A stretch of 64,000 nt of DNA from Escherichia coli (GTDB lineage: Bacteria > Pseudomonadota > Gammaproteobacteria > Enterobacterales > Enterobacteriaceae), in the NCBI RefSeq assembly GCF_003334385.1, contig NZ_QOWN01000007.1, one strand, 5' to 3'. Position numbers and translations under genes: made by a program. Below the pieces are notes generated by a model. It did not search any database. It saw only the letters and a program-made list of their open reading frames with translations, and had not been told where the DNA came from. Positions 6,759 through 49,285 of this stretch are shown here, piece by piece. Position 1 is the first letter of the stretch, and each line of letters starts with the position of its first letter.

Positions 6759-6760
6759 CC

Positions 6761-7665: not shown

Positions 7666-7669
7666 CGTT

Positions 7670-8113
7670 ATGCAACGTATGATGCTCATCGGCCCCAGCC
7701 AGTGCGGAAAAACGTCACTCACGCAATGTCTGCGTAGCGAAAATATTCATTATCAGAAAACGCAGGCAATCGTCTGGTCCCCGACCACCATTGATACACC
7801 AGGCGAATACCTCGAAAACCGCAGCCTCTACAGTGCACTGTTGGTCAGTGCCTGCGAAGCAGACATTATCGCGCTGGTGCTTAATGCGGACGCACCGTGG
7901 TCACCTTTTTCGCCAGGCTTTACCTTGTCAATGAATCGCCCGGTCATTGGAGTAGTAACCAAAGCAGATTTAGCCAGCATGGAACAAATATCTTTGGTGA
8001 AATGTTGGTTACGGGAAGCTGGAGCGCACAACGTGTTAGTAACCAGTGCGGTTAATAACAATGGAGTGGCAGAACTTTTAGCCTTGCTGCATACAGAAGA
8101 AGGCTGTCGCTAA
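7670..8113 (+). CDS. pduV: Microcompartment-associated GTPase PduV (EutP/PduV family)
   Basis: 147 aa with P-loop [10 protein letters not shown]. Confidence 0.85.
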
Positions 8114-8171
8114 TTTCGACAGGTTATCAGATGGGAATGATGACGGTGATACACAGAAAAGAATCAATGAA

Positions 8172-8200
8172 CATTGAGGGTTGCCAGGCAACCCTCAATG
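8172..8200. terminator. Inverted repeat between convergent pduV and yeeX (possible bidirectional terminator)
   Basis: cattgagggttgcc-a-ggcaaccctcaatg perfect 14-bp stem; weak U-tract. Confidence 0.4.
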
Positions 8201-8213
8201 AATAAAACAGGAA

Positions 8214-8543
8214 TTACTTCGCTTCGCCGTTTTTCATTTCGCCCATAGCTTTCAGCTTTTTGGAGATATCACGGCGTTCTTTGGAGAGCTCGGCATTTTT
8301 GATGATGTAATCGTCAACACGATCTTCATAGTCACCCTTCATGCTGGCGATGATGCCCTGGATTGCTTCAACGCTCATCCCCGGCTTGATGTAATCGCTC
8401 AGGTTGTCCAGCAGCAGGACGCGCTTCTGGTTGTCACGGATCTTTTTCTCAACGTCCTGAATTTCACGTTGCAGTTTGTTCTTACGACGGAACAGACGAA
8501 CAAATTCCAGTACGTCCTGGAATGAAGGCTTGGTAGTTTCCAT
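8214..8543 (-). CDS. yeeX: UPF0265 family protein YeeX
   Basis: 109 aa from [14 protein letters not shown]...; ORF-track 131 aa version is an upstream extension. Confidence 0.85.
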
Positions 8544-8714
8544 TTTTATACCCCTGATAATGTGAGAGTCGGATTCGTTTAAGCAACCGCTATTCGTTAG
8601 GGCCAACATTACTCATAGCTGCCGCAGATGACAATGCTTTTATCCCTTTTCACTATCATACCCTTTATCCTTGCTGAATCGAAGCAGCAGCAAGATGATT
8701 CTGAAGTTCAGGAA

Positions 8715-9773
8715 TTATTTGCGCAAGGCCCGGCAAATCAGATTCGATAGCAACTCAAGCTGATGTGCCGTTTCCATGTTCAGCCACACATAACCATAGA
8801 TTGGTGTTTCCACAACCTTCAGGTCATGGTGGTTATTGAGCAACTGACGCAGCTCTTCCACAGCATCGTTCAATTTTTCCGTATTGGCAAAAACCGGCTG
8901 CGGATTACCTTCGTACAGCGCATGAACAAGGCTCAGCAGTATTTGCTGCATCATGTGCTGGGTATCACGAAGTTTTTGCGCGTTCAATAACACGAAATGG
9001 CTGGGGCGCGTGGCCCAGTACGCATTGATTTGCAACTCCAGCATACAAACCAGATTGCGGTTAATGGTCTGGATACCTTCATATATCGATTTTGGAATAC
9101 GGGTTTCTTTGCTGGCGGGCGCAATCAGCCCACGCATTTTCACGGCATCGGTCAGGAGTTTTTGTAGATGGCTTTCCAGACGTGGGCGTTCGAGTAAGTT
9201 CGGTGAGAATGCTGATTGATAGACCCGATTATACTCGGTCAGACTTTTCGCCAGTTGAATGCGCCAGTGGATGAACGCCCGTTGTGGCCAGATACCGGTA
9301 AACAACATTGCCAGTAAAGAGCCGAGGATCACATCGCCGCTTCGCCATAACGCCGTATCAATTTCACCTGTCGGGGAACCCACAACAATTGCCAGCGTCA
9401 CCCCAATCAATAAACCTTGATACGGTTTCTTGCCCAGCGCCAGCCAACCGCAAAGGAACATGGCCGCCGCGCACCAGACTAACATCAGCGGTAACGAGAT
9501 TAACTCCAGTTGCAGAGCGATAAGACCTAATATCGAACCCAACACCGTACCGCCAATACGTTCGAAGGCACGAGGGACAACGTTACCCCAGAACGAGATT
9601 GGCCCCATAATCACCACCATGGTGACCAGCGGCCAGGTGCTTTCAGGGATAGTAAACAGGCGGATAATGAGAAAAGTGAGCAGGAATGCCAGCGCGACCC
9701 GAGTACCATGCACAATGCGGTAATGGCGGTATACCCGGATTTCAAACGGGCTTAATGACTTATCGGCAAGCAC
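8715..9773 (-). CDS. yeeA: Inner membrane protein YeeA (FUSC-like)
   Basis: 352 aa multi-TM protein, synteny with sbmC. Confidence 0.85.
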   Translation of the reverse strand: MLADKSLSPFEIRVYRHYRIVHGTRVALAFLLTFLIIRLFTIPESTWPLVTMVVIMGPISFWGNVVPRAFERIGGTVLGSILGLIALQLELISLPLMLVWCAAAMFLCGWLALGKKPYQGLLIGVTLAIVVGSPTGEIDTALWRSGDVILGSLLAMLFTGIWPQRAFIHWRIQLAKSLTEYNRVYQSAFSPNLLERPRLESHLQKLLTDAVKMRGLIAPASKETRIPKSIYEGIQTINRNLVCMLELQINAYWATRPSHFVLLNAQKLRDTQHMMQQILLSLVHALYEGNPQPVFANTEKLNDAVEELRQLLNNHHDLKVVETPIYGYVWLNMETAHQLELLSNLICRALRK

Positions 9774-9971
9774 GCAGAAACTCCGTAATGAAAATTAAAA
9801 GCGCTCATAACACATCTGTCGGCCAGAAGGCGCGCCTCTGAATTATCCGACGGACAAACCGGGAACAGTGTAATTTCCCGGCAGGAGCGAAAAATTTGAA
9901 AGGCGCATCTTACTCTTTTCGCTTTCAAAAAAAAGAGTGGTCATCGCGTTAACACACCGCCCTGAGATGAA

Positions 9972-10445
9972 TTAGTGATGTTTTGGCTGCACCGCAACAT
10001 ACATTTCGATATCCCAGTACCCATCTTCCGCGCCATTGTTCAAATAAACCTCGAAGCAGGGCTTTGGTAACATTTCATAAGCACTGTCCTGCAAGAGGCT
10101 ATTAAAGAACTGATACCAGGGTTTAGCAAAATCATCACCGACTACACGAGCCACCGCAACCGCATACTGACCACCTGAAATTTCTGTCAGAATGACGCCC
10201 TCACTGTTTTCGGGGAGCGTAAAGTTATTCGGTACCGTCACGACGGTGTCGCAGCGTAATTTTTCGGCGGGTGTTTCATCTGGATTGTCGTAATAGACAG
10301 CAACCCACTCCTTCGGCACAATATTTTGGCTATCTACCCACATCATCAACTGCTCAAAACCTTTCTTTACCGTCTGTTCCCACGGGCCAACGAGATGGAA
10401 ACCTGCAACGGTACGTTTATCTTCCTGCTTAATCTCGTAGTTCAT
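9972..10445 (-). CDS. sbmC: DNA gyrase inhibitor SbmC (GyrI)
   Basis: 157 aa; LexA box immediately upstream. Confidence 0.9.
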
Positions 10446-10459
10446 GACGCCTCCATTAA

Positions 10460-10479
10460 TACTGTTTTTATATACAGTA
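10460..10479. promoter_or_regulatory. LexA (SOS) box in sbmC promoter
   Basis: TACTGTTTTTATATACAGTA matches CTGT-N8-ACAG consensus, ~15 bp upstream of sbmC start. Confidence 0.8.
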
Positions 10480-10563
10480 TAGTTGCAATATTAAAACCAC
10501 AAGGAATGAGTGTTGATTATGCGAGCAGACTCGCACTCCTGCCAGTCTGCTGCAAAAGAAAGG

Positions 10564-11736
10564 TCAGGCCTTATGGTGGAAATAATCACTCAGGCGAGAA
10601 AACATGCTGCCTTCCCCGACAGATTCCAGGGTAACCAGCGGCCAGTGCGCCACCTGTTTATCACGGTCGTAAAGTTCAATTTCCCCTACCCGCTGATGGG
10701 CGCTAATTGGCGCGGTGAGTTCTTTACCATCAAGGGTATATTTGGCTTTGATATGTGGAATTTCGGCTTTCGGTAGCACCATCCAGAACTCTTGTTCCGT
10801 TCCCAGGGCGATATTTTCTTTATCGCCATACCAGATGCGTTCCGTACCGACCTTTTTCCCACGGTGCAAAATTTGCACCGTAGTAAAGTTTTGTTGCCCC
10901 CAACGCAGTAATTTTCTTGCCTCTTCCTCACGACCTTTTGCGCTGTCAGCACCCATTACCACTGCAATGAGACGACGCTGCCCATCTACAGCCGAAGCAA
11001 TGAGATTAAACCCGGCACCAGAAGTATGACCCGTTTTCAGGCCGTCAACATTCATGGTTTTATCCCACAATAACCCGTTACGGTTTTGCTGGGTGATACC
11101 GTTCCAGGTGAGGCTTTTCTCACTGTACATATGATAAAACTCGGGCTCGCCGTGGATGATAGCACGAGAAAGCACAGCTAAATCATAAGCCGAGCTATGC
11201 TGACCTGGCGCATCCAGGCCATGCACTGTTTCAAAATGCGTATCCTTGAGATGCAGCTTCTCGGCATAGTTGTTCATCATTTCAACAAACTGCCGTTGCC
11301 CACCGGCAATATAGTCAGCCAGAGCAACACAAGCGTCATTTCCGGAATCAACAATTAAACCACGGCTTAAATCACGTACCGATACGCGATCGCCCTCTTT
11401 CAAAAACATCAGTGAAGAACCGACAAACACCGGATTATCTTTCGCCCACGCATCGCGCCCCACGGTGACAATATCGTCTGGCGTAATGCGATGACTATCG
11501 ATAGCGCGATCCACGACATAACCCGTCATCAGCTTTGTCAGGCTGGCGGGATTGCGCTGTTGATGCTCATTACCCGCGGTGAGGATCTGTCCGGTGGTGT
11601 AATCCATCAGTACCCAGGACCCGGCATGAATCTCTGGAGGCTGAGGTGAAAAAGGAATGTTTTCCGCCGCAAAACCAGACGATAAGTTAAAAACGAACAA
11701 AGAAGCAGCAATAATAAGACGGCGTTTCAACAGCAA
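10564..11736 (-). CDS. dacD: D-alanyl-D-alanine carboxypeptidase DacD (PBP6b)
   Basis: 390 aa with signal peptide and SxxK (ASLTKLMT) motif. Confidence 0.9.
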   Translation of the reverse strand: MLLKRRLIIAASLFVFNLSSGFAAENIPFSPQPPEIHAGSWVLMDYTTGQILTAGNEHQQRNPASLTKLMTGYVVDRAIDSHRITPDDIVTVGRDAWAKDNPVFVGSSLMFLKEGDRVSVRDLSRGLIVDSGNDACVALADYIAGGQRQFVEMMNNYAEKLHLKDTHFETVHGLDAPGQHSSAYDLAVLSRAIIHGEPEFYHMYSEKSLTWNGITQQNRNGLLWDKTMNVDGLKTGHTSGAGFNLIASAVDGQRRLIAVVMGADSAKGREEEARKLLRWGQQNFTTVQILHRGKKVGTERIWYGDKENIALGTEQEFWMVLPKAEIPHIKAKYTLDGKELTAPISAHQRVGEIELYDRDKQVAHWPLVTLESVGEGSMFSRLSDYFHHKA

Positions 11737-11938
11737 ACCCTCAGGAGTTTCAAATAGCTGTTCTTTTTACGGAAATACTTATGAACTGGCTGGAATAAAG
11801 TGCAAGAAAATGTGACTACCCTCTCATTTTTATCTGACATGATCTGTTGCCACTCGCTGCCAAATTGTGGCGCTAAAGCTGATTAGCACGGTGATATTTG
11901 ATACTCTGGCAGACAGCAGAAATAACGGATTTAACCTA

Positions 11939-13366
11939 ATGATGAATGACGGTAAGCAACAATCTACCTTTTTGTTTCACGATTACGAAACCTTTGGCAC
12001 GCACCCCGCGTTAGATCGCCCTGCACAGTTCGCAGCCATTCGCACCGATAGCGAATTCAATGTCATCGGCGAACCCGAAGTCTTTTACTGCAAGCCCGCT
12101 GATGACTATTTACCCCAGCCTGGAGCAGTATTAATTACCGGTATTACCCCGCAGGAAGCACGGGCGAAAGGAGAAAACGAAGCCGCGTTTGCCGCCCGTA
12201 TTCACTCGCTTTTTACCGTACCGAAGACCTGTATTCTGGGCTACAACAATGTGCGTTTCGACGACGAAGTCACACGCAACGTTTTTTATCGTAATTTCTA
12301 CGATCCTTACGCCTGGAGCTGGCAGCATGATAACTCGCGCTGGGATTTACTGGATGTTATGCGTGCCTGTTATGCCCTGCGCCCGGAAGGAATAAACTGG
12401 CCTGAAAATGATGACGGTCTACCGAGCTTTCGCCTTGAGCATTTAACCAAAGCGAATGGTATTGAACATAGCAACGCCCACGATGCGATGGCTGATGTGT
12501 ACGCCACTATTGCGATGGCAAAGCTGGTAAAAACGCGTCAGCCACGCCTGTTTGATTATCTCTTTACCCATCGTAATAAACACAAACTGATGGCGTTGAT
12601 TGATGTTCCGCAGATGAAACCCCTGGTGCACGTTTCCGGAATGTTTGGGGCATGGCGCGGCAACACCAGCTGGGTGGCACCGCTGGCGTGGCATCCTGAA
12701 AATCGCAATGCCGTAATTATGGTGGATTTGGCAGGAGACATTTCGCCATTACTGGAACTGGATAGCGACACATTGCGCGAGCGTTTATATACCGCAAAAA
12801 CCGATCTTGGCGATAACGCCGCCGTTCCGGTTAAGCTGGTGCACATCAATAAATGTCCGGTGCTGGCCCAGGCGAATACGCTACGCCCGGAAGATGCCGA
12901 CCGACTGGGAATTAATCGTCAGCATTGCCTCGATAACCTGAAAATTCTGCGTGAAAATCCGCAAGTGCGCGAAAAAGTGGTGGCGATATTCGCGGAAGCC
13001 GAACCGTTTACGCCTTCAGATAACGTGGATGCACAGCTTTATAACGGCTTTTTCAGTGACGCCGATCGTGCAGCAATGAAAATTGTGCTGGAAACCGAGC
13101 CGCGTAATTTACCGGCACTGGATATCACTTTTGTCGATAAACGGATTGAAAAGCTGTTGTTCAATTATCGGGCGCGCAACTTCCCGGGGACGCTGGATTA
13201 TGCCGAGCAGCAACGCTGGCTGGAGCACCGCCGCCAGGTATTCACACCCGAGTTTTTACAAGGCTATGCAGAAGAGATTCAGATGCTGGCGCAGCAGTAT
13301 GCCGACGATAAAGAAAAAGTGGCGCTGTTAAAAGCGCTTTGGCAGTACGCGGAAGAGATTGTCTAG
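11939..13366 (+). CDS. sbcB: Exodeoxyribonuclease I SbcB
   Basis: 475 aa from MMNDGKQQSTFLFHDYETFG; ORF-track start at 11867 is an extension. Confidence 0.9.
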   Translation: MMNDGKQQSTFLFHDYETFGTHPALDRPAQFAAIRTDSEFNVIGEPEVFYCKPADDYLPQPGAVLITGITPQEARAKGENEAAFAARIHSLFTVPKTCILGYNNVRFDDEVTRNVFYRNFYDPYAWSWQHDNSRWDLLDVMRACYALRPEGINWPENDDGLPSFRLEHLTKANGIEHSNAHDAMADVYATIAMAKLVKTRQPRLFDYLFTHRNKHKLMALIDVPQMKPLVHVSGMFGAWRGNTSWVAPLAWHPENRNAVIMVDLAGDISPLLELDSDTLRERLYTAKTDLGDNAAVPVKLVHINKCPVLAQANTLRPEDADRLGINRQHCLDNLKILRENPQVREKVVAIFAEAEPFTPSDNVDAQLYNGFFSDADRAAMKIVLETEPRNLPALDITFVDKRIEKLLFNYRARNFPGTLDYAEQQRWLEHRRQVFTPEFLQGYAEEIQMLAQQYADDKEKVALLKALWQYAEEIV

Positions 13367-14886: not shown

Positions 14887-16245
14887 TTACGCTACGTCTT
14901 CGTACTGCGGAACCGGATTACGGAAACTCTTGGTGACGCAAGCCAGGTAAATCAGACCGATAGCCGCCCAGATCAGACCCAGAACCATTGAGCTTTCTTC
15001 CAGGTTAACCCACAGCGCACCAACGGTCAGCGCACCACACATCGGCAGGAACAGATACTGGAAGTGATCTTTCAGCGTCTTGTTACGCTTCTCACGGATC
15101 CAGAACTGCGAGATGACCGACAGGTTAACGAAGGTGAACGCCACCAACGCACCAAAGTTGATCAGCGCTGTAGCCATTACCAGGTCGAAGTTGATTGCCA
15201 GCAAGGCAATCGCGCCAACCAGGATGATGTTCATCGCCGGAGTACGCCATTTCGGGTGTACATAACCGAAGAAGCTTTTCGGGAATACGCCGTCACGCCC
15301 CATTACGTACATCAGACGCGCAACGCCTGCATGCGCCGCCATACCGGACGCCAGTACGGTAATGGTGGAGAAGATCAGCGCACCAACCTGGAATGCTTTA
15401 CCTGCAACATACAGCATGATTTCAGGCTGTGACGCATCCGGATCTTTAAAGCGAGAGATATCCGGGAAGTACAGCTGCAGGAAGTAAGTTGCAAAGATGA
15501 AGATCATGCCGCCAATCAGCGCGGTCAGGAAAATCGCACGCGGGATCACGCGCTCTGCATCTTTGGTTTCTTCCGACAGGTTGCTGATGCCGTCAAAGCC
15601 GGTAAAGGAGAAGCACAGGATTGTCGCCCCGGTAATCATCGGGATAACATGCGCATCGCCAGACCAGAATGGACGAGTGCTCGCCAGCGTACCAGCGCCT
15701 TCACCTTCAAATACGCCATAAACAACCATGCCCAGAATCACCGCGATCAGCACTACCTGCAACACGACGATTACAGTGTTGAAGTTCGCTACGGATTTCA
15801 GACTACGCAGGTTAAAGGCGGTCATAAAGGCCACCAGCGCCACCACAAACATCCACGATGGGATGGAAGGCACCAGAGCTTCAAAATAAATTTTCGCCAG
15901 CAGAATGTTGATCATCGGCGCGAACAGATAGTCGAGCAGAGAAGACCAACCCACCATAAAGCCGACAGTCGGGCTAATGGATTTCTGGGCGTAAGTGTAT
16001 GCAGAGCCAGCAGAAGGATAGCGGCGAACCAGCTTCCCGTAGCTCAGAGCCGTAAACAGGATCGCAATCAATGCGAACGCATAGGCTGTCGGCACATGAC
16101 CATCCGTGAGGCCTGAAACGATACCAAAAGTATCAAACAGCGTCATCGGCTGCATATAGGCAAGACCCATCATTACAACCGGAACTAACGTAAGCGTTTT
16201 ACGCAATTCCACGCGAGAGGTGTTTGGAGTAACGTTATGCGACAT
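14887..16245 (-). CDS. plaP: Putrescine importer PlaP (YeeF), APC family
   Basis: 452 aa from [16 protein letters not shown]; amino-acid/polyamine permease. Confidence 0.9.
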
Positions 16246-17486: not shown

Positions 17487-18311
17487 TTACTCCAGCGGCA
17501 TTACCAGCGGATCGGGATACTGGTATTCAAATCCCAGTTCATTACAAATCCGACTGCCATCAATAATCTTACCTTTGCCGCTGTCCAGACTATTTCTGAA
17601 CTGCGGAGGCTCCAGCCCCAGTAAACGGGCCATCTGCGGATAGAAAACATTACGCGCAGGGTGAGCTGGCGCACATATATTATAGATGTGTCCGCCTTTA
17701 GGTGCCTGTAACAACAGAGTGATAGCGCCAATAACATCTTCTAAATGGACTAAATTAACACCATGTTCACCATCAGGCGCGGTTTTTCCGGCAAAGAAGC
17801 GTCCGGGATGACGTCCCGGTCCGACCAGCCCCGCAAGACGCAGAATATCGACCGAAGTACCGGGTAAATTGTGCAGCCAGTCTTCGAGTTCTTCTAATAC
17901 TCGTCCACTGTTGGTCACCGGATTACGCGGGGTGGTTTCTTTCACCGTGCCTTGCGCGTCGCCATAGACAGATGTTGAGCTGGTGAAAATAATGCGGGGA
18001 ATACGATGGGCCAGCGCGCTATCCACTAACTCTTGTACCGCTTGTAAATAGAACTCATCGCCGGGGCCGCTACGACGTGCCGGAAGCGTAATGACCAGCG
18101 CGTCGGCATCCATCAGGGCATCCAGATCGTCAGAATCGCAAACTAGCTCAGGCTCCATGCGAAGCAGATAGCTATCAATGCCACTCATTCGGGCCGCTTC
18201 GACACCATCTTGTGTGGTTTTACTCCCGGTGACTTGCCAGCCTCGCGCTGAAAGTGACATCGCCAGCGGCATGCCTAACCACCCTAACCCGACAATTGCG
18301 ACCTTTTTCAT
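17487..18311 (-). CDS. yeeZ: NAD-dependent epimerase/dehydratase family protein YeeZ
   Basis: 274 aa Rossmann N-terminus MKKVAIVGLGWLG. Confidence 0.85.
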   Translation of the reverse strand: MKKVAIVGLGWLGMPLAMSLSARGWQVTGSKTTQDGVEAARMSGIDSYLLRMEPELVCDSDDLDALMDADALVITLPARRSGPGDEFYLQAVQELVDSALAHRIPRIIFTSSTSVYGDAQGTVKETTPRNPVTNSGRVLEELEDWLHNLPGTSVDILRLAGLVGPGRHPGRFFAGKTAPDGEHGVNLVHLEDVIGAITLLLQAPKGGHIYNICAPAHPARNVFYPQMARLLGLEPPQFRNSLDSGKGKIIDGSRICNELGFEYQYPDPLVMPLE

Positions 18312-18393
18312 CCGTTATCTCCTGATACACCTTAGATCTATAAGGCTACGCTAGCGTATCAAAACTGACAATTCATTCTATGAATGAATCTGT

Positions 18394-18648
18394 TCAATAA
18401 TGATAACGACATGCTGCAATGAGCAGTGAATCGTCGGTAACCGCGTATACCAGACGGTGCTCCTCTGTAATGCGTCGGGACCAGAAACCTGACAAATTAT
18501 GTTTCAGGGGTTCTGGCTTCCCCTTACCTTCAAATGGCGTTCTGCGGGTATCTTTGATAAGTTCATTGATCTTTTTAACAATTCGCTTATCTGTTTCCTG
18601 CCAGTACAGATAATCGTCCCATGATTCCTCAGACCAGATTAGTTTCAC
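18394..18648 (-). CDS. yoeB: Toxin YoeB (RelE/YoeB family ribosome-dependent mRNA interferase)
   Basis: 84 aa, overlaps yefM stop by 4 bp. Confidence 0.9.
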
Positions 18649-18896
18649 TCAATGATGTCCTTTTCCGTTCCTTTGCCTGATTTCAGGCTATCGATTGAGT
18701 CCATCAATCTCCGGGCGTTAGCGGGGGAACGCAGTAGATAAGCCGTCTCTTCCAGGGAGTTATATTCTTCGAGTGACATCAGAACACAAGCCTCTCCATT
18801 CTGACGAGTAATAAGGATCGGGGCATGATCTTCAACGGCTTTCATCATTGTTGCCGACAAATTCTGACGCGCTTCGCTGTAGCTAATTGTACGCAT
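18645..18896 (-). CDS. yefM: Antitoxin YefM
   Basis: 83 aa from [23 protein letters not shown]-track start is extended. Confidence 0.9.
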
Positions 18897-19179
18897 GTCA
18901 ATCTCCTCTTTTGTACAGTTCATTGTACAATGATGGGCGTTAATTAACTATTTATTAATTAGTTTGTAGATCAAGATATTGTCAGTGAGACGAAAAATCC
19001 AGGCTTCGCTATTTTGGGTACCGTCAGGTTAGAGGACAGTCCTCTTAGCCCCCACCTTTCCCCGCTCATTCATTAAACAAATCCATTGCCATAAAATATA
19101 TAAAAAAGCCCTTGCTTTCTAACGTGAAAGTGGTTTAGGTTAAAAAACATCAGTTGAATAAACATTCACAGAGACTTTT

Positions 19180-19230
19180 ATGACACGCGTTCAATTTAAA
19201 CACCACCATCATCACCATCATCCTGACTAG
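19180..19230 (+). CDS. hisL: his operon leader peptide HisL
   Basis: MTRVQFKHHHHHHHPD* with seven consecutive His codons. Confidence 0.95.
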   Translation: MTRVQFKHHHHHHHPD

Positions 19231-26505: not shown

Positions 26506-27483
26506 TTACTTCGCGTTGTAATTACGCAGAGCGTTACGCCCCAAGACAATCCCCGCGCCAACCATGCCGCCCAGCAGCACCGCCAGAATCAAGGTAATTG
26601 CCTTTTTCGGGCTATCGCGACGAATAGGTAACGTCGGTTTCATCACATAACGGTAAGCATGAATATCAAGATCATCAACCTTTAAGTTTTCGATATCCAG
26701 CAGGTTTTGACGTGTCTGATAGTAGTTTGGTGAGAACACTAACGGACGTGTCGCCTCATGCTTAATCATCGACTCCAGAGCTTCGCTCCCCAAAAGGAAC
26801 AACGTATCTTGCGTCACATCTTCAGTCTGCTGAACCTGTGGCTTTGTCACCTGCGCCTGATTCGCATACTGCAACGCTTCCTGAATCTGACGGATACGCA
26901 GATCTTTCTGCTCCTGCGCAACCACTTCCTGGGTCTTCAGCGAATCCTGCAAGTTTTTCATACGCAGCGCGATGTTGTCTTTCAGGTCTTTTTCCAGTTC
27001 TTCGTTTACCTGGTCGTCAACTTGCTGGATATACTTCGCCAGCTGCTTCTGCGCACCTTCAGGTGTTTCACCAACATAAGACACCGCCAGTGGTAACGGC
27101 TGGTTTTTAACGGTAGGCTCAATGGTCAGCTTCTCTGCTTCTTCCTGGTTATCCAGCGTTTCCGCTAATGCTGAGAATGCAGTGCTGTAACGTCCGATAA
27201 GTGAAGCCTGAATGTCGGAGACTTTCGGTACAGCCGGACCGTAAATCACATTCATCGCGTTGGTATAACCAGCGATTTGCCCCACATCAGGTTGAGTAAC
27301 GATAGCTGTGGAAGTCCACTTTTCTTTGGCAACGGCCAGATACCCTATAGCCAGGGCAATAGCCACAATGACAGAGATGATAATTGTCATCTTGCCACGC
27401 CACAACTGCACCAGTAAATCAATCAAATCAATCTGTTCCGGGTCATGGTTTTGCCCAGAAACATTATTATTTTCTACTCTCAT
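26506..27483 (-). CDS. wzzB: O-antigen chain-length determinant WzzB (Cld)
   Basis: 326 aa from MRVENNNVSGQNHDPEQIDLIDLL; two TM segments flanking periplasmic coiled-coil. Confidence 0.9.
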   Translation of the reverse strand: MRVENNNVSGQNHDPEQIDLIDLLVQLWRGKMTIIISVIVAIALAIGYLAVAKEKWTSTAIVTQPDVGQIAGYTNAMNVIYGPAVPKVSDIQASLIGRYSTAFSALAETLDNQEEAEKLTIEPTVKNQPLPLAVSYVGETPEGAQKQLAKYIQQVDDQVNEELEKDLKDNIALRMKNLQDSLKTQEVVAQEQKDLRIRQIQEALQYANQAQVTKPQVQQTEDVTQDTLFLLGSEALESMIKHEATRPLVFSPNYYQTRQNLLDIENLKVDDLDIHAYRYVMKPTLPIRRDSPKKAITLILAVLLGGMVGAGIVLGRNALRNYNAK

Positions 27484-27629: not shown

Positions 27630-27738
<109 letters not shown>

Positions 27739-27908
27739 TAATAGTCAGCTTGGAACAGCTTTGATTGTAAAATGAGCACGTTACCAGAAAAAACAGCCAG
27801 GTTTAGAACTGATACCGATTATCTTTTTTTCTTGTCTAACGGTATGATTTAACTTTCAGTTATGCCAGATGAAGATTGGCTATATTCTAGCCTGAGCGAG
27901 GATTATAA

Positions 27909-28913
27909 ATGAAATTTCTGGTTACGGGAGCTGCTGGCTTTATCGGTTTCTATGTAAGTAAACAGCTTCTTGCAGCTGGTCATCAGGTTGTAGGCATTGA
28001 CAACTTAAATGATTATTACGATGTCAACCTCAAACAAGCACGACTTGATTTACTCAAGCACGACAATTTCAGTTTTTATAAAATTGACCTGGCCGATCGC
28101 GAGATAATGGCGGCACTGTTTGCAGACGAGCGGTTCGATCGCGTAATAAACCTCGCTGCGCAAGCCGGTGTACGTTACTCCCTTGAAAATCCCAATGCAT
28201 ATGCAGATGCAAACCTGATTGGATTCCTGAACATACTGGAAGGATGTCGCCATAATAATGTTCGGCATCTACTTTACGCTTCCTCCAGTTCTGTTTATGG
28301 CATGAACCGCAAGATGCCTTTCTCTACAGATGACTCTGTAGATCATCCTGTTTCGCTGTATGCAGCAACTAAAAAGGCGAATGAACTCATGGCCCATACG
28401 TATTCTCATTTGTATGGCTTACCGACCACAGGGCTGCGTTTCTTTACGGTTTATGGTCCATGGGGACGTCCAGATATGGCATTATTTAAATTCACTAAAG
28501 CCATGCTGGAAGGTAAAAGCATTGATGTTTACAACTTCGGCAAAATGAAGCGTGACTTTACTTATATTGATGATATTGCCGAAGCTATTATTCGCTTACA
28601 GGATGTTATTCCAGAAAAAGATCCACAGTGGGCTGTAGAAACAGGCTCGCCAGCAACAAGTTCAGCACCATATCGTGTCTATAACATTGGTAATAGTTCG
28701 CCTGTGGAGTTAATGGATTATATCAATGCCTTAGAAGAGGCTCTGGGTATTGAAGCCAACAAGAATATGATGCCTCTCCAACCCGGTGATGTACTGGAAA
28801 CCAGTGCTGATACAAAAGCACTGTATGACGTAATAGGATTCAAACCTGAAACGTCAGTTAAAGAGGGGGTAAAGAACTTTGTAGAATGGTATCGTAACTT
28901 CTATAAAGTTTGA
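27909..28913 (+). CDS. NAD-dependent UDP-glucuronate 4-epimerase-like protein (SDR family)
   Basis: 334 aa; GAAGFIGF Rossmann motif, YAATK catalytic motif, [15 protein letters not shown] region resembling UDP-GlcA 4-epimerases. Confidence 0.75.
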
Positions 28914-28935
28914 TTTTATAAAACCATAATAAATA

Positions 28936-28959
28936 TCCTCCGGCATAGCCGGAGGTTTT
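28936..28959 (+). terminator. Hairpin plus T-tract downstream of the epimerase gene (terminator, or part of the IS200 right end)
   Basis: cctccggc-ata-gccggagg followed by TTTTT. Confidence 0.5.
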
Positions 28960-29036
28960 TCAAATGCGCCTATAAGGCTCTCTTACCAGCCGCGCCCTAA
29001 CAGGCGCACACGATCTGACATTTGCATCCAACTTCG

Positions 29037-29495
29037 TTACTTACGGCCCGTAAACGGGCTGCCCGGATAGGGAATCGATAACTGCTCTCCCATTTTATCC
29101 TCTTCAAGCTGGTGCTTTATGTAATCCTGTATCTTCGCCGTGTTCTTACCCACCGTATCGACGTAGTACCCTCTGCACCAGAACTCCCTGTTCCTGTATT
29201 TGAATTTCAAATCACCAAACTGCTCGTAAAGCATCAGACTGCTTTTCTCTTTCAGATATCCCATAAAGCCGGATACGCTCATTTTGGGCGGGATCTCCAC
29301 AAGCATATGGATATGATCTGCACAGCATTCAGCTTCAAGAATCCGTACGCTTTTCCACTCACACAGCTTTCTCAAAATACAGCCTATTGCTCTACGCTTC
29401 TCTCTGTAGAACACTTGTCTTCGGTATTTTGGCGCAAAAACTATGTGATATTTACAGTTCCATCGGGTGTGCGCTAAGCTCTTTTCGTTCCCCAT
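29037..29495 (-). CDS. tnpA: IS200-type transposase TnpA (HUH Y1 transposase)
   Basis: 152 aa from MGNEKSLAHTRWNCKYHIVFAPKYRR; contains HxH (HIHMLV) motif. Confidence 0.85.
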   Translation of the reverse strand: MGNEKSLAHTRWNCKYHIVFAPKYRRQVFYREKRRAIGCILRKLCEWKSVRILEAECCADHIHMLVEIPPKMSVSGFMGYLKEKSSLMLYEQFGDLKFKYRNREFWCRGYYVDTVGKNTAKIQDYIKHQLEEDKMGEQLSIPYPGSPFTGRK

Positions 29496-29650
29496 TGGGA
29501 CCCCCTTTTGATTTCTTGTTTGACACTTGCAGTTGCCAGACCGCAAGGTGTTTTAACAAATCAAAAGGGGTTATAATAACTGGCTCAAAGCTGAAAGCTT
29601 TCCGGAACCCCCAGCCTAGCTGGGGGTTTTCTTAGTATGAAACAAAATAA

Positions 29651-30817
29651 TTAATCATTGCCAAACAAGTCGCGCGTATAAACCTTATCTGCTACATCAG
29701 CCAGATCGGCAGACATACGGTTAGAAATAATAACATCAGCTTCTTGTTTGAACGCATCCAGATCACGTACCACGCGCGAACGGAAAAAATCGACCTCTTT
29801 CATCGCTGGCTCATAAACGATTACTGGCACACCTTTAGCCTTGATTCGCTTCATAATACCCTGAATCGAGGAAGCACGGAAATTGTCTGAACCACTCTTC
29901 ATAATCAAACGATAGACGCCAACAACTTTCGGTTTACGTGCAAGGATAGAATCGGCAATAAAATCTTTGCGCGTGCGGTTGGCGTCAACAATTGCCGAGA
30001 TCAGGTTATTCGGCACAGACTGGTAATTTGCCAGTAACTGCTTAGTATCTTTCGGCAGACAATAACCACCATAACCGAATGACGGGTTGTTGTAGTGATT
30101 ACCGATACGCGGGTCAAGGCATACGCCCTCAATAATCTGGCGTGAATTAAGCCCCAGGCTTTCAGCATAACTATCAAGTTCATTGAAATACGCTACACGC
30201 ATCGCCAGATAGGTGTTGGCAAAAAGTTTAATCGCCTCAGCCTCGGTTGAGTCAGTAAACAATGTTGGTATGTCTTGCTTAATAGCGCCTTCCTGTAATA
30301 ACGCTGCAAAACGTTCTGCGCGGTCGGATTGCTCGCCAATCACAATGCGTGATGGGTGTAAGTTATCATAAAGTGCTTTACCTTCACGCAAAAACTCAGG
30401 CGAAAAGATCACATTTTCAATACCAAACCGTTCTTTAATGGACTCTGTAAAACCAACAGGGATAGTTGATTTTATAATCATTACAGCATTGGGATTAATT
30501 TCTGTCACATCGCGAATGACCGCTTCCACGCTTGAGGTATTAAAATAATTTGTTTTCGGATCATAATCGGTAGGTGTGGCAATAATAACGTAATCGGCAT
30601 TTTTATACGCGTCATACTTATCTGTCGTAGCGCGGAAATTGAGATCTTTAGTCGCCAGATACTCTTCAATCTCCTTATCAACAATCGGTGACTGCTTCTT
30701 GTTAAGCATGTTCACTTTGGCCTGAACGATATCCAGTGCAACCACTTCGTGATTTTGCGCAATCAGAATACCATTTGAAAGACCAACATAACCTGTTCCT
30801 GAAATTGTTATTTTCAT
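29651..30817 (-). CDS. ugd: UDP-glucose 6-dehydrogenase Ugd
   Basis: 388 aa from [16 protein letters not shown]. Confidence 0.95.
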
Positions 30818-31065: not shown

Positions 31066-32472
31066 TTAATCCAGCCATTCGGTATGGAACACACCGTCTT
31101 TATCAATGCGCTTATAAGTATGCGCACCGAAATAGTCACGCTGTGCCTGGATCAGGTTCGCAGGAAGAACAGCGGCACGGTAGCTATCGTAATAGGCAAC
31201 CGCAGCGGCGAAGGTCGGAACCGGGATACCGTTCTGTACTGCATAAGCAACGACATCACGCAGCGCCTGCTGGTAGTCATCGGCAATTTGCTTGAAGTAC
31301 GGAGCCAGCAGCAGGTTAGCGATCTGCGGATTTTCGGCATATGCATCGGTGATTTTCTGCAGGAACTGCGCACGGATGATGCAGCCAGCACGGAAAATCT
31401 TCGCGATTTCGCCGTAGTTCAGATCCCAGTTGTATTCTTCAGACGCAGCACGCAGCTGAGAGAAGCCCTGAGCGTAAGAAACGATTTTGCCCAGATACAG
31501 CGCACGGCGAATTTTTTCGATGAACTCAGCCTTGTCGCCTGCTGGCTGTGCTTGCGGGCCAGAGAGAACTTTAGATGCGGCAACACGCTGATCTTTCAGA
31601 GAAGAGATATAACGTGCAAACACAGACTCGGTAATCAGCGACAGCGGTTCGCCGAGATCCAGCGCGCTCTGGCTGGTCCATTTACCGGTACCTTTGTTAG
31701 CCGCTTCATCCAGAATCACATCAACCAGGTAGTTACCGTCTTCATCTTTTTTGGTGAAGATATCTTTGGTGATGTCGATCAGGTAACTGCTCAGTTCACC
31801 GTTATTCCACTCGGTAAACGTCTGCGCCAGTTCTTCGTTAGAAAGATTCAGGCCACCTTTAAGCAGAGAATAGGCTTCAGCAATCAGCTGCATATCGCCG
31901 TATTCAATACCGTTGTGAACCATCTTCACATAGTGACCTGCGCCATCGGCACCAATATAGGTAACGCATGGCTCACCGTCTTCAGCCACTGCGGCGATTT
32001 TAGTCAGGATCGGCGCAACCAGTTCATAGGCTTCTTTCTGTCCGCCAGGCATAATGGAAGGACCTTTCAGCGCACCTTCTTCACCGCCGGAAACACCGGT
32101 ACCAATGAAATTAAAGCCTTCTGCAGAAAGCTCACGGTTACGACGAATAGTGTCCTGGAAGAAGGTATTACCACCATCAATGATGATGTCACCTTTATCG
32201 AGGAATGGCTTGAGGGAATCAATAGCAGCATCCGTGCCTGCACCTGCTTTCACCATTAACAGGATGCGACGAGGCGTTTCCAGAGATTCAACAAACTCTT
32301 TCACCGTATAGTAAGGAACCAGTTTCTTGCCTGGATTTTCGGCAATCACTTCTTCCGTCTTTTCACGGGAACGGTTGAAAATAGAGACGGTATAACCACG
32401 GCTTTCGATGTTGAGCGCAAGGTTGCGCCCCATCACTGCCATACCGACGACGCCGATCTGTTGCTTTGACAT
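31066..32472 (-). CDS. gnd: 6-phosphogluconate dehydrogenase (decarboxylating) Gnd
   Basis: 468 aa [21 protein letters not shown]. Confidence 0.95.
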
Positions 32473-32576: not shown

Positions 32577-33587
32577 TTAATCATAACCCTTTGGATTTTT
32601 GAGTTGCCAAAGCCAAGCATGCTTCAACATGTCCTCAAGATTATATTTTGCGCTCCAACTTAATTCAGCTCTAATCAATGATGGATCGGCCCAGCATTCA
32701 GGCACATCACCCTTTCGTCGTTTGGAGATACGATAAGGAACAGAGACATTATTAACTCGCTCAAATGTATTTACTATCTCTAATACAGATGAACCAACAC
32801 CCGTACCTAAATTATAAATATGTAGACCATTTGTTTTTTTATTATTCAATGCAGCTATATGTCCTTCAGCTAAATCGCAAACATGAATAAAATCTCTGAT
32901 TCCAGTTCCATCAGGCGTACTATAATCATCGCCATAAATGGTCAAATACGGCAAATCCCCAATTGCGACTTTAGTCACGTAAGGTACTAGATTATTAGGA
33001 ACTCCTAGAGGATCCTCTCCAATCTCTCCTGAAGGGTGGGCACCAATAGGGTTAAAATATCTAAGAATAGTTATATTCCAATCGCCATCAGATTGAATTA
33101 AATCCATCAAAATTTGTTCGACCATATGCTTACTGGTCCCGTAAGGATTTGTAGTTCCTCCAGTTACACATTTTTCAGTTAATGGCATATTATCTGGCAG
33201 TCCATATACAGTCGCAGAAGAACTAAATATAATATCCTTTATCCCATTTATACACATTAACTGCAATAAGTTTAACGTTCCAACTACATTGTTGTGATAA
33301 TATGTTAAAGGTGCCCTACTAGATTCTGAAACTGATTTCAATCCAGCAAAATGAATAACCTTATTAATATCATGTTTAGAAAAAATTTCTTGCAGAGATT
33401 CAGCATTACAAATATCATAATCATAAAATACAAATTCTCCACCGCTCAGCGCTTTTATTCTGTCAATCACACTTGCTTTAGAGTTTGAAAAATTATCAAC
33501 AACTATGACGTTATATTTTAACTCAATCAATCGAATTAAAGTATGAGAACCTATATATCCTAAGCCACCAGTAACTAATATGTTCAT
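32577..33587 (-). CDS. gne: UDP-sugar 4-epimerase (GalE/Gne family)
   Basis: 336 aa, TGGxGYIG and YGTSK motifs; AT-rich; position at gnd-proximal end of O-antigen cluster. Confidence 0.8.
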   Translation of the reverse strand: MNILVTGGLGYIGSHTLIRLIELKYNVIVVDNFSNSKASVIDRIKALSGGEFVFYDYDICNAESLQEIFSKHDINKVIHFAGLKSVSESSRAPLTYYHNNVVGTLNLLQLMCINGIKDIIFSSSATVYGLPDNMPLTEKCVTGGTTNPYGTSKHMVEQILMDLIQSDGDWNITILRYFNPIGAHPSGEIGEDPLGVPNNLVPYVTKVAIGDLPYLTIYGDDYSTPDGTGIRDFIHVCDLAEGHIAALNNKKTNGLHIYNLGTGVGSSVLEIVNTFERVNNVSVPYRISKRRKGDVPECWADPSLIRAELSWSAKYNLEDMLKHAWLWQLKNPKGYD

Positions 33588-33605: not shown

Positions 33606-34727
33606 TCAAATGACATTAAATAATTTTCTTTTAAAAAGAATACATAACCAAGTAAAGGTAAAAAAGTAAGGAATTGCAGTTGTTCCGAGTGACATTGATG
33701 CTATCAAAAATGGAAGCACGATGACAATAGCATCCTCTTTGAGGTAAATGCACATAATGCATAATAATACTAAAAATAAAAATAATCCAATCATGCCAGT
33801 TTCAATTAAGAAAGTCAGAAACAGATTATGTGCCCCCATACCAATAACATCGACTGCATTTCCAAGACCAACCCCCAGCAATATCACCTCAACATTATTA
33901 TTCTTAATGTATTCGAGTGAATACCTAATTAAATCAAATTTACTTTCAAAGCTTATATCATCCGTGAATTTTTTAAATACAAACCATGAAAGAACAATAA
34001 GTAATACTGGCATAAGCATATATGAGAAAGCTTTGATGCGCTTATTTTTCATTAGAACAGAAAGCACAAAAAGCAATATCATTGCTATGATAGCAGCCCT
34101 AGAGAAAGTTAAAACAACCCCAACAAATAAAGCACAAAAAACAAGAAAGTATCTTACGCGCAATAAACCAACAATTTTAATATCTCTGAAGAAATAAAGA
34201 AAACAGGATAATATAAAAACAGCTTCTAGACCAACAAAGTTGGAATCGGCATACATAAGTGAGTTTACTTTATATATTTGAAAGCCGATACCCAGTTCTT
34301 CTAACTTATCAACATTTGCAAGATACGGATGTTGAATTCTCCAAAAACCATCAAGAATGAAAACGAATGAATAAAACAAGAAAACATTCAATAAATTTCT
34401 TTTTGTAATGCTTCGTCCCTTATAATAAAAATCCACCAACATTGGAGAAAGCAGCACCATACACAGATTAATTACAAGTGAAAAATGCGAGTTTATAAAA
34501 AGGAAAGTTGACAATAGTGATATAATAAGACTTATGAGTGTGAAAAAAGAAACATCCCATTTCCTGCAACTAACATTTGTAAGAAAAACCAAAATCATTG
34601 AAAGAATAAAAATAAAATAAACAGGACTAATCGCAGTTATTTGGGTTATATATAAACCACAAGATATCAACCATAAAAGGCCGATAAATGAGATTTTTTT
34701 ATCAGCATTATTATTTTCAAGTTTCAT
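33606..34727 (-). CDS. wzy: Putative O-antigen polymerase Wzy
   Basis: 373 aa, highly hydrophobic, about 10 predicted TM segments, very AT-rich, no conserved enzymatic motif. Confidence 0.6.
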   Translation of the reverse strand: MKLENNNADKKISFIGLLWLISCGLYITQITAISPVYFIFILSMILVFLTNVSCRKWDVSFFTLISLIISLLSTFLFINSHFSLVINLCMVLLSPMLVDFYYKGRSITKRNLLNVFLFYSFVFILDGFWRIQHPYLANVDKLEELGIGFQIYKVNSLMYADSNFVGLEAVFILSCFLYFFRDIKIVGLLRVRYFLVFCALFVGVVLTFSRAAIIAMILLFVLSVLMKNKRIKAFSYMLMPVLLIVLSWFVFKKFTDDISFESKFDLIRYSLEYIKNNNVEVILLGVGLGNAVDVIGMGAHNLFLTFLIETGMIGLFLFLVLLCIMCIYLKEDAIVIVLPFLIASMSLGTTAIPYFFTFTWLCILFKRKLFNVI

Positions 34728-35782
34728 TTTTCACCAATAAGTTTCATATATATATTAAATGTCTTTTCTGAAATCACATCAAACGAATATTTTTCGTTGA
34801 CCATATCTATTCCAGTTATATTAACACCCATATATTTATTTATATCAAACTTATCTTTATTATTGCAAATAAATCCACAAGAACCGTTATTTATCATTTC
34901 ATAAGCAAGCCCTCCCATTTCCCCAATTATCGGATAGACACCATTAGCAAGTGCCTCCAACACAACATTTGGCATACCTTCTCGCTCCGATAAATGTATT
35001 AGGAATTGAGAACGACACATTATTTCATTAATTTTTTGATGTTCAATTTTACCTAAAAAATGGATATTATTACTACTAAACTGCTTACAGTTCAGCACAT
35101 AACCTGCTTCAAAACCATCAAGACTTTCATTATCGGGGCCAATTATCAAAAGTTTATATCCTTGGTTTTCAAAATTATCTTTATAAAATTTTATTCCTTC
35201 TATTATTTTTTTTCTTGGTATAATTGCAGATATTATTAAAACTATTTTTTCCTTAATCTGTTCATTCCCGTACATACAATCAGGGGCACTGACGCCATTT
35301 GGAATAGTAACCAACCTAGTGATGGGAATGTATTTACTATTAATTTCATATATTTGTTTCGATAACGTATTGTTTATCGAAATAAACCTCAACAACCAGT
35401 GCTTAAGAGACCTCAAAGAACCACGATTTATCAATGTATGGAAATCATCACAATCCAATAAAGTTGATTTCCAATAGACAGGTATTTTGAAAATAGCACA
35501 AATACCAAGAAGACCAAAATCAGCCCCATGGAAATGAACAACATCCGGTTTAATAGATTTACACAAAAGAAAGAACTGCCAAAATCTTTTATATGATGAA
35601 GATATTTCCATTACACTGAATTGAACATCCTCACTTAATTTAGAAATACGATTCTGGCATCTAGTCACAAAAATTTGTTCGATATTGGGGGCATGTTTTT
35701 TTAAAGCCTTTGCTAAATTTTTTGCTTGAAGAGATGCGCCGCTAAAGCCATAATAATTATGTACTATATGGATCACTTTCAT
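34724..35782 (-). CDS. Glycosyltransferase, GT-B fold (GT4-like)
   Basis: 352 aa with C-terminal EREGMPNVVLEALANG motif. Confidence 0.75.
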   Translation of the reverse strand: MKVIHIVHNYYGFSGASLQAKNLAKALKKHAPNIEQIFVTRCQNRISKLSEDVQFSVMEISSSYKRFWQFFLLCKSIKPDVVHFHGADFGLLGICAIFKIPVYWKSTLLDCDDFHTLINRGSLRSLKHWLLRFISINNTLSKQIYEINSKYIPITRLVTIPNGVSAPDCMYGNEQIKEKIVLIISAIIPRKKIIEGIKFYKDNFENQGYKLLIIGPDNESLDGFEAGYVLNCKQFSSNNIHFLGKIEHQKINEIMCRSQFLIHLSEREGMPNVVLEALANGVYPIIGEMGGLAYEMINNGSCGFICNNKDKFDINKYMGVNITGIDMVNEKYSFDVISEKTFNIYMKLIGEK

Positions 35783-35991
35783 TTATATATTTTTCTCTTT
35801 GAAAACCTAATAGAAAACATTTTAAATTTATTTACTATTGTGCTGTCTATAATAAAATTTTTGCTATCACACAACACACAAAAAAGGTAAAACCATTGAA
35901 ATAACGTTAATAATATTTTATTACCGTCAGTTTTTTGGTCTTCAATACACCTTTACCTCAAGTGAATTCACCTTACACAAAGCAAGCGTAC

Positions 35992-37215
35992 TCAAATATA
36001 ACAATCGCTATTTTTAGCATCTCGAATGCTACATTTTATCGCATAACCGATAATACCCAAGTTGAAAAGCATACCAATTATAGAATAAATGTATATGAAA
36101 TCTATAAATGATAACTTCATATAAAAGCTATAGCATACAGCCATTACTCTAAATACCAATAGGAACATATCATAGATAAATAAAGATCTGAATCGTCCAA
36201 TAACAGTTAAATATGAAGTTGAAGTAACATTAGCAAAAGATACCAAGAGCCACCATGCTAAAGCTGAAGCTATTTCACCAGCGCCTTCCCATTCTTCACC
36301 TGCATAAATTTTAAAAAAATCAGTTGCAAATAAATTAATGAGAATTATTCCGATCATACTTAGAGATAGTAATAAGATCGAGCTTCTCCATATTATATTT
36401 GATAAAAGACGATAATTTCTTTTATTCCTATTTAACTCTCCCAGAATATATGGTCTAACGGCATTTGTGAAAAAAATAATTGGTACCTGAGTTAATCTTA
36501 CAGCCAAGCCATACAGACTTACAATATAAAAACCATATTGTCCAGAAATAAAAAGAACTGGCAATTGTGAAGAAAAAGAACTAGCAAGAGACTGAACAGA
36601 GCTCAAACCGGCTTCTCTGATCTTCAAAAAACTCACTTTAAACTTAAATTTTCTATTAAGTTTTCTTCCTAGTTTTAAGCAAAATAGGATACATATTATT
36701 TGAGATAATAGAAAGCTCACAATAAGCCCATTTTTAGAAAACTTAAACAAAATTAATTGTAATACAACTAAGCTTGAAGTCCTAATGATATTTAATATTA
36801 TTATGGTTCTGTAATAAGAATACAGACTAAAGTAAGACGTATATAACTGCAATATCGCAAAGGTAAATATTGATGGAGCAATAACAAGGTAACTTATATC
36901 AAATTTAAAAAAATAAAATAATGCTCCAGTCGCAATTAAACACAATAAGGATATGCATATTGCGATAACAAGTCCATTACAAAAACATATGTACCACGAA
37001 TATTTGTCATCGAAATTATACATTATCTGATCATATCTACCGCACGCAATAACTCCCAATATTAAAACCACTGCCATGATAGTAGAATATATACCAAAAT
37101 CACTTGGTTGATAAATTCTTGTAAGTAAGGGGGTGCCTAATATAACAATAATTTGTGCTAATGCATTACCACCGATTACTTTACTTATGGTGGTACTTAT
37201 TTTTTTTAGAGACAT
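35992..37215 (-). CDS. wzx: O-antigen flippase Wzx (MOP superfamily)
   Basis: Multi-TM; LLTRIYQPSDFGIYS motif; start uncertain (ORF extends to 37305 and overlaps the upstream GT). Confidence 0.7.
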   Translation of the reverse strand: MSLKKISTTISKVIGGNALAQIIVILGTPLLTRIYQPSDFGIYSTIMAVVLILGVIACGRYDQIMYNFDDKYSWYICFCNGLVIAICISLLCLIATGALFYFFKFDISYLVIAPSIFTFAILQLYTSYFSLYSYYRTIIILNIIRTSSLVVLQLILFKFSKNGLIVSFLLSQIICILFCLKLGRKLNRKFKFKVSFLKIREAGLSSVQSLASSFSSQLPVLFISGQYGFYIVSLYGLAVRLTQVPIIFFTNAVRPYILGELNRNKRNYRLLSNIIWRSSILLLSLSMIGIILINLFATDFFKIYAGEEWEGAGEIASALAWWLLVSFANVTSTSYLTVIGRFRSLFIYDMFLLVFRVMAVCYSFYMKLSFIDFIYIYSIIGMLFNLGIIGYAIKCSIRDAKNSDCYI

Positions 37216-48799: not shown

Positions 48800-49285
48800 T
48801 TTTTTGCCTGATGCGACGCTGGCGCGTCTTATCAGGCCTACAAGACCCGAGCACAGAACCGTAGGCCGGATAAGGCGTTCACGCCGCATCCGGCATTCAG
48901 TGCCTGATGCGACGCTGACGCGTCTTATCAGGCCTACAGGTCCCGAGCACAGAACCGTAGGATGGATAAGGCGTTCACGCCGCATCCGGCATTCAGTGCC
49001 TGATGCGACGCTGGCGCGTCTTATCAGGCCTACAAGACCCGAGCACAGAACCGTAGGCCGGATAAGGCGTTTTACGCCGCATCCGGCATTCAGTGCCTGA
49101 TGCGACGCTGGCGCGTCTTATCGGGCCTACAAGATCCAAGCCCTGAACCGTAGGCCGGATAAGGCGTTCACGCCGCATCCGGCATTCAGTGCCTGATGCG
49201 ACGCTGACGCGTCTTATCAGGCCTACAGGTCCCGAGCACAGAACCGTAGGATGGATAAGGCGTTTTACGCTGCACCCGGCAACCG
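48800..49285. repeat. BIME array: about 10 REP palindromic units in alternating orientation
   Basis: Repeated gcctgatgcgacgctg(g/a)cgcgtcttatcaggcctac and gtaggccggataaggcgttcacgccgcatccggc units. Confidence 0.9.

Follow-up and report, generated by a model that had tools for sequence, protein, structure and literature searches.

The gene at positions 27909-28913 of the 64,000-nucleotide stretch of Escherichia coli DNA analyzed here (contig NZ_QOWN01000007.1, hereafter the window) very probably encodes a UDP-glucuronate (UDP-GlcA) 4-epimerase whose product is destined for the adjacent O48 O-antigen, having been imported together with the neighboring ugd as one block, with the IS200C element between the two genes arriving later. 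From its sequence, the gene appears to be the already recognized sugar-nucleotide gene gla (uge), the E. coli counterpart of Klebsiella GlaKP/Uge, and thus a member of a well-known enzyme family.

Over positions 19038-51000 the window shares 99.1% identity with the E. coli VE-T2 chromosome, and the RefSeq annotation of that strain was used for gene names. To the left of gla lie, in order, the end of the pdu operon, dacD, sbcB, yeeZ, yoeB-yefM, the his operon (+ strand) and then wzzB (- strand); from gla (+) rightwards, the order is the IS200C transposase gene tnpA, ugd and gnd (all -), the O48 O-antigen cluster, galF and the colanic acid genes. The sequence-only reading had described gla as the only + strand gene in a - strand region, and by the VE-T2 annotation this holds for the whole interval between wzzB and the last of the colanic acid genes. 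The window has no group 1 capsule genes. The features used in the analysis are as follows.

26506-27483, - strand: wzzB, O-antigen chain-length regulator
27630-27736, - strand: K-12-like remnant of the 3' end of ugd, 107 nt, between wzzB and gla (partial hypothetical protein in RefSeq)
27864-27880, + strand: inverted repeat GCCAG-N7-TTGGC in the gla leader, kept in divergent E. coli and Klebsiella alleles
27898-27902, + strand: GAGGA ribosome-binding site, read from the sequence, 6 nt 5' of the gla ATG
27909-28913, + strand: gla (uge), predicted UDP-glucuronate 4-epimerase, 334 aa, intact; assigned from Pfam domains, identity to PDB 5u4q and residues
about 28934-29626, - strand: IS200C insertion (tnpA at 29037-29495) between the convergent gla and ugd, neither gene interrupted
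29651-30817, - strand: ugd, UDP-glucose 6-dehydrogenase, supplier of UDP-GlcA, a divergent allele
31066-32472, - strand: gnd
32577-33587, - strand: gne (annotated galE), UDP-GlcNAc/Glc 4-epimerase of the O48 cluster
33606-43401, - strand: O48 O-antigen cluster (RefSeq "O48 family O-antigen polymerase/flippase" in VE-T2)
33606-34727, - strand: O48 wzy
34724-35782, - strand: O48 glycosyltransferase, GT4
35992-37215, - strand: O48 wzx
37181-37963, - strand: O48 glycosyltransferase, GT2
37960-39003, - strand: O48 glycosyltransferase, GT4
39005-39919, - strand: O48 glycosyltransferase, GT2
within 33606-43401, after the GT2 gene at 39005-39919, - strand: rfbC, rfbA, rfbD and rfbB of the O48 cluster, L-rhamnose synthesis

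Three further observations concern parts of the window away from gla. At the left end (positions 1-12000), the end of the pdu operon (pduP, pduQ) adjoins dacD and yeeA, and only 641 of 5,426 complete E. coli genomes cover this stretch to at least 80%, which marks it as a variable region. Positions 18307-19207 are 98% identical to the yoeB-yefM toxin-antitoxin stretch of E. coli EH41, whereas VE-T2 has no yoeB-yefM annotated between yeeZ and hisL despite its otherwise 99% identity. Between wcaK and wzxC, a 96-bp unit is repeated 4.9 times in tandem (48805-49281); the array is built of REP-type, BIME-like palindromes, which are ordinary in E. coli intergenic regions.

The gla reading frame begins with ATG, remains open throughout its 334 codons and ends with TGA. 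The same frame occurs at 95% or greater nucleotide identity in 279 of the 5,426 complete E. coli genomes, and such conservation marks it as a genuine gene rather than an open frame that arose by chance. All three protein stretches named in the sequence-only reading were located, GAAGFIGF at residues 7-14, YAATK at 151-155 and a 15-residue epimerase-like region at 209-223, and the first of them holds the GxxGxxG NAD-binding motif of the extended short-chain dehydrogenases/reductases (SDRs) as G7-A-A-G10-F-I-G13. In a Pfam profile search the protein matched Epimerase (E=2e-57) and GDP_Man_Dehyd (E=6e-54), domains of the NAD-dependent epimerase/dehydratase family. Upstream, an inverted repeat of the form GCCAG-N7-(T/C)TGGC, approximately 30-45 nt 5' of the start, is common to E. 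coli and Klebsiella alleles that are otherwise only ~72-78% identical, and could be a leader stem-loop or an operator. A sigma-70 consensus scan of the 170-bp leader gave no promoter match; regulation by Fur has been reported for Klebsiella uge (PMC11282780).

The best PDB match of the gla protein is 5u4q from Klebsiella pneumoniae (634.7 bits), with 270 of 334 residues identical (80.8%), which was deposited as a "dTDP-glucose 4,6-dehydratase." Many Klebsiella contigs (368 index blocks) encode a protein identical to 5u4q, and in the Klebsiella places that were read its gene is convergent with that of a 388-aa UDP-glucose dehydrogenase, which is the published layout for glaKP/uge, the gene for UDP-galacturonate 4-epimerase (PMC3101168). 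From this gene position we infer that 5u4q is the sequence of the characterized GlaKP. The second match, and the best among characterized PDB proteins, is BcUGAepi of Bacillus cereus (6zl6; 154 bits, E=5.7e-44), a UDP-GlcA 4-epimerase of established mechanism (PMC7984243), followed by WbgU (139 bits), Thermotoga GalE (137), WbpP (126) and MoeE5 (123), the last being another UDP-GlcA 4-epimerase; E. coli GalE reached only ~80 bits in the same search. As WbgU and WbpP, epimerases of UDP-GalNAc and UDP-GlcNAcA respectively, score not much lower than BcUGAepi, it is the Klebsiella orthologue that mainly carries the assignment. Citrobacter, Klebsiella, Raoultella, Trabulsiella and related genera have homologues at 85-89% identity, and several homologues carry the JGI name "UDP-glucuronate 4-epimerase."

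In UDP-GlcA 4-epimerases the carboxylate of the substrate is held by Thr126, Ser127, Ser128 and Thr178 (BcUGAepi numbering), and in UDP-GlcA decarboxylases Glu replaces Ser128 (PMC7984243). An alignment of the window gla protein with 5u4q, BcUGAepi, the window Gne and the window RmlB placed S126, S127, S128 and T180 of the gla protein in these columns, with no Glu at the 128 position, and aligned its catalytic triad S126/Y151/K155 with T126/Y149/K153 of BcUGAepi. The same columns are occupied by S124, A125, T126 and N179 in Gne, and by T133, D134, E135 and N196 in RmlB, where Asp-Glu is the dehydratase pair. Judged by these residues, the gla protein bears the signature of a uronic-acid epimerase and lacks those of dehydratases and decarboxylases.

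Family placement was based on such residue signatures together with the cut-offs of curated models. No NCBIfam model reaches its cut-off on the gla protein, whether TIGR01181 (RmlB), the top match by E-value (148 bits against 365.1), TIGR01179 (GalE; 146.5 against 262.3) or NF011728 (TviC; 123 against 760); since no Gla-specific model matched either, RefSeq gives the protein only the generic name "NAD-dependent epimerase." The profile search and family comparison that had been suggested as a check did not group the protein with the UDP-Glc or UDP-GlcNAc epimerases, as it is only 23% identical to the window Gne, encoded 4 kb away, and remains below the GalE cut-off. The earlier proposal of a UDP-GlcA 4-epimerase linked to ugd is therefore borne out by the 81% identity to the protein at the Klebsiella gla/uge position, by synteny, by the carboxylate residues and by the failure of the rival models.

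Other activities within the same superfamily were weighed against this assignment. A Gne-type UDP-GlcNAc/UDP-Glc 4-epimerase is what the 334-aa gene between ugd and wzz was taken to be in E. coli LL004, where it was assigned gne (PMC8657804); the title of the GlaKP paper speaks of extended substrate specificity, and according to PMC7984243 the activity of GlaKP on other UDP-sugars is strongly decreased. We regard such an activity as very unlikely here, given the low identity to Gne and the GalE score, the presence of S127, S128 and T180 where Gne has Ala, Thr and Asn, the gne already provided by the O48 cluster, and the fact that the LL004 O-antigen contains GalA while its authors named no other gla (PMC8657804). 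There is similarly little to be said for a GnaB/WbpP/TviC-type UDP-GlcNAcA 4-epimerase yielding UDP-GalNAcA: the PDB scores of WbgU and WbpP are moderately strong and the TviC model does match, but the cut-off of that model lies far above the score, the corresponding VE-T2 region has only ugd annotated and no UDP-GlcNAc 6-dehydrogenase, and the protein at the Klebsiella gla position is a much nearer relative of the gla protein than these enzymes are. A sugar-nucleotide 4,6-dehydratase or a UDP-GlcA decarboxylase has a negligible chance of being correct; the title of 5u4q, some source names ("dTDP-glucose 4,6-dehydratase") and the E-value rank of TIGR01181 speak for the former, but that model falls well short of its cut-off, Ser-Ser stands where RmlB has Asp-Glu, Ser also stands where decarboxylases have Glu (PMC7984243), and a genuine rfbB is already present in the window.

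The history of the locus can be read from its left junction. The window aligns with K-12 from hisI onward, across wzzB and over the final 107 nt of K-12 ugd, the match ending at window position 27736. This remnant agrees with the end of K-12 ugd in 100 of its 107 positions, whereas it matches the full-length ugd of the window at only 77 of 107. The full-length ugd is in turn 75% identical to K-12 ugd in nucleotides and 83.5% in amino acids, with amino acid identities of 90% to Klebsiella ugd and 99% to the ugd of gla-positive E. coli (O113, O147). GC content is 42.5% in both gla and ugd and 55% in the his operon. Most simply, a gla+ugd block would have replaced the resident ugd, with one junction inside the last 107 nt of the latter.

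Among the matches listed, IS200C occurs at the gla-ugd junction in the five best-matching genomes alone, and at least two of these are O48. A locus free of the element (L002, E. coli EH41) has a GC-rich hairpin with U-tracts on both sides between the two stop codons (15025-15047); in the window this native hairpin is replaced by IS200C, whose own terminal hairpins lie at 28937-28955 and about 29606-29626. Because the other gla-positive genomes listed align across the junction without the element, and neither coding sequence is touched, IS200C is a late, lineage-specific insertion that is irrelevant to the acquisition. The possibility that IS200 brought gla in was rejected, as most gla-positive genomes lack IS200 there. 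The suggestion that the flanking element points to separate acquisition thus loses the element as evidence, present as it is in only five of the genomes listed, while the acquisition itself is real and attested by the 107-nt scar and the divergent ugd.

By megablast, gla is present in 293 of the 5,426 complete E. coli genomes, always on the chromosome and in single copy, and the allele group of 279 genomes is 96-100% conserved across many O types. The gla-positive genomes that we sampled include O48, O113, O139, O158, O147, O159, O153/O178, O54, O115, O133, O87, O116 and O155, as well as five further clusters that have no RefSeq type. Six of these serogroups, O113, O116, O115, O139, O159 and O54, we take to be GalA-containing; GalA is stated in paper text for O147 and LL004 only, among the gla-linked serogroups. 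To measure co-occurrence, gla was concatenated with 13 wzy alleles placed on the opposite strand, so that matches could not merge, and this query returned 293 genomes and 451 places, which means that 158 genomes carry one of the 13 wzy alleles and that all of them (158/158) also carry gla. The alleles had been picked from gla-positive genomes and gla lies ~5 kb from wzy, and the count is for that reason not independent of physical linkage; it shows that gla is strictly co-inherited with the 13 sampled wzy alleles and is not independent proof of function.

A more sensitive search added divergent gla alleles (72-78% nucleotide identity), bringing the total to 524 genomes, and those that were sampled occupy the same site. 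Several copies are broken. In an O111:H8 genome (L031, 12001-13005) a nonsense codon stands at position 85 (CAA to TAG) and the gene is annotated "internal stop," and in an O9 and an O8 genome (L032 and L033, 11001-12005) a Klebsiella-type allele bears the same annotation within a Klebsiella-like capsule and O-antigen layout. The O111 unit contains colitose and no uronic acid, and the annotation of the mannosyl-polymerase WbdA marks O8 and O9 as polymannans. The laboratory strain E. coli C (L025, NZ_CP020543, 11119-14501) has a gla cut short by ISSen4 and a wzzB interrupted by IS3. The close allele (95% or greater nucleotide identity) stands beside O types that include GalA-containing ones, while the divergent or interrupted alleles of O111, O8, O9 and E. 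coli C are broken; no other comparative finding speaks as strongly for use of the product in the O-antigen.

In the window, and wherever both genes were in view in a sampled E. coli genome, gla and ugd converge; the copy beside ugd in E. coli C is truncated. A second Klebsiella gla copy follows ugd on the same strand. The Klebsiella homologue P0058 was set aside as a synteny reference, because its ugd side is replaced by IS elements and is uninformative, and the 5u4q sequence was used instead.

Taken together, these patterns lead us to favor, with modest confidence, the view that the wzzB-ugd junction holds a mobile gla(+ugd) enabling module, which is intact where the O-antigen has GalA and absent or pseudogenized where it does not. 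If this is true, major reviews err in assigning the UDP-GalA gene to a conserved locus elsewhere, "gne" is a mistaken label in the literature, and for the many untyped O-antigen clusters the presence of GalA could be predicted from the state of gla. Our literature search found no open paper that tabulates gla against O serogroups.

The sequence-only reading had left the acceptor pathway of the product unknown. That position can now be narrowed, since the O48 cluster is adjacent, gla is co-inherited with O-antigen clusters and it decays where the O-antigen lacks GalA, and the most likely acceptor is the O48 O-antigen. The other polysaccharide encoded nearby, colanic acid, uses GlcA and not GalA. 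The related statement that no glycosyltransferase can be specifically assigned to GalA stands: BLASTP comparison of the O48 glycosyltransferases with those of nine other gla-linked clusters found only weak, non-diagnostic similarities, and no GalA transferase was assigned. The gene content (rfbBDAC, Gne for GalNAc, four glycosyltransferases and GlcNAc initiated by WecA) implies a five-sugar O48 unit, in which D-GalA is reportedly among the components of the O48:H21 antigen. PMC11989651 cites the O48:H21 structure (MacLean, Webb & Perry 2006) for its reference data on D-GalA, and a review of E. coli O-antigens counts O48 among the units that contain a single GlcNAc and a single GalNAc and have gne (PMC7685785).

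Published work on other strains points the same way. In E. coli LL004, a novel serogroup with D-GalA in its O-unit, ugd and wzz are separated by a 334-aa "NAD-dependent epimerase" gene of 42.7% GC that runs on the strand opposite to theirs, and O147, the sampled genomes of which carry gla, contains beta-D-GalA (PMC8657804). A gene named "gla" has also been noted in the O-antigen region of UPEC 965 (PMC8849078).

A separate observation on the gla-linked O-antigen clusters is that genes for ATP-grasp fold amidoligases recur in them (L011, 10482-11366, O54; L020, 9504-10418; L025, 4978-5859), the last belonging to the cluster of E. coli C, which otherwise looks complete. Such enzymes would be in keeping with amino acids joined as amides to the carboxyl of GalA, a modification that is recorded for O110 in the reference list of the O-antigen review.

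There remains the question of whether the epimerase, though functional, is a mere passenger of the imported ugd whose product enters no glycan of the strain. The import of gla and ugd as one block would suit such a history, as would the decay of divergent alleles at the site in O111, O8 and O9 genomes and the fact that GalA is verified for some linked serogroups only (not, for example, for O158, O133, O87 or O155). We nonetheless consider it improbable, since the window gene is intact and its allele group is conserved at 96-100% across 279 genomes of many O types, whereas unused copies demonstrably gain stops or IS insertions, and since PMC11989651 draws on the O48 structure paper for D-GalA.

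Under the preferred reading, in which enzyme activity, GalA in the product and its use by the O48 transferases are predicted, an E. coli ancestor would have received gla and the neighboring ugd allele as one block that replaced the resident ugd, and IS200C would later have inserted harmlessly between the two. Ugd would supply UDP-GlcA as the substrate of Gla, and Gla, as an extended SDR with bound NAD+, would oxidize C4 of UDP-GlcA to a 4-keto intermediate, which may then rotate and be re-reduced from the opposite face to give UDP-GalA. This course of C4 oxidation, rotation and re-reduction is the mechanism established for BcUGAepi (PMC7984243). One or more of the four O48 glycosyltransferases would then put GalA into the O48 repeat unit, and Wzx, Wzy and WzzB would process the GalA-bearing unit.

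The finding reveals no new enzyme, pathway or mechanism, and its main value lies in the correction of annotation, namely of the RefSeq name "NAD-dependent epimerase," the dehydratase name in the PDB, the gne of LL004 and the review's "elsewhere." In addition, recognition of gla completes the predicted O48 pathway, from Ugd through Gla to a glycosyltransferase, and provides a simple genomic marker for GalA-containing O-antigens.

Among known enzymes, BcUGAepi (6zl6) and Streptomyces MoeE5 (6kv9) share with Gla the SDR fold, the Ser/Thr-Tyr-Lys triad and a carboxylate pocket of Ser-Ser plus Thr, although BcUGAepi is a distant match (154 against 634.7 bits for 5u4q) and the enterobacterial proteins have a 16-residue insertion (approximately residues 233-248) that is absent from BcUGAepi. 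The Gne of the O48 cluster is also an SDR 4-epimerase from the same polysaccharide region, but it differs from Gla in sequence, is without the residues that bind the carboxylate and falls in the GalE/Gne clade. The "gne" (orf11) of LL004 resembles gla in its 334-aa length, its position between ugd and wzz, its opposite orientation and its GC content, and its best match is an E. coli "NAD-dependent epimerase," which indicates that orf11 is gla itself. Its authors, in contrast, assigned orf11 to UDP-GlcNAc/Glc epimerization and held that gla "always maps elsewhere" (PMC8657804, Table 3), and the main E. coli O-antigen review likewise places UDP-GalA genes at conserved loci elsewhere (PMC7685785). 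From our data, both "gne" for orf11 and "dTDP-glucose 4,6-dehydratase" for 5u4q look wrong.

The closest parallel is Klebsiella GlaKP/Uge (Regue 2004; Frirdich & Whitfield 2005), with which the window gene shares a 334-aa product, here compared through the 5u4q protein, a convergent arrangement with ugd downstream of gnd, and the same catalytic and carboxylate-binding residues. The GC content of the window gene is 42.5%, against 55% for the Klebsiella copy. Klebsiella uge makes UDP-GalA for the LPS core (PMC11282780) and is found species-wide, whereas E. coli gla, present in ~5-9% of complete genomes, goes with particular O-antigen clusters and has decayed in O8, O9 and O111. The two therefore differ in role, the E. 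coli gene being a strain-variable accessory of the O-antigen and the Klebsiella gene a species-wide gene of the core.
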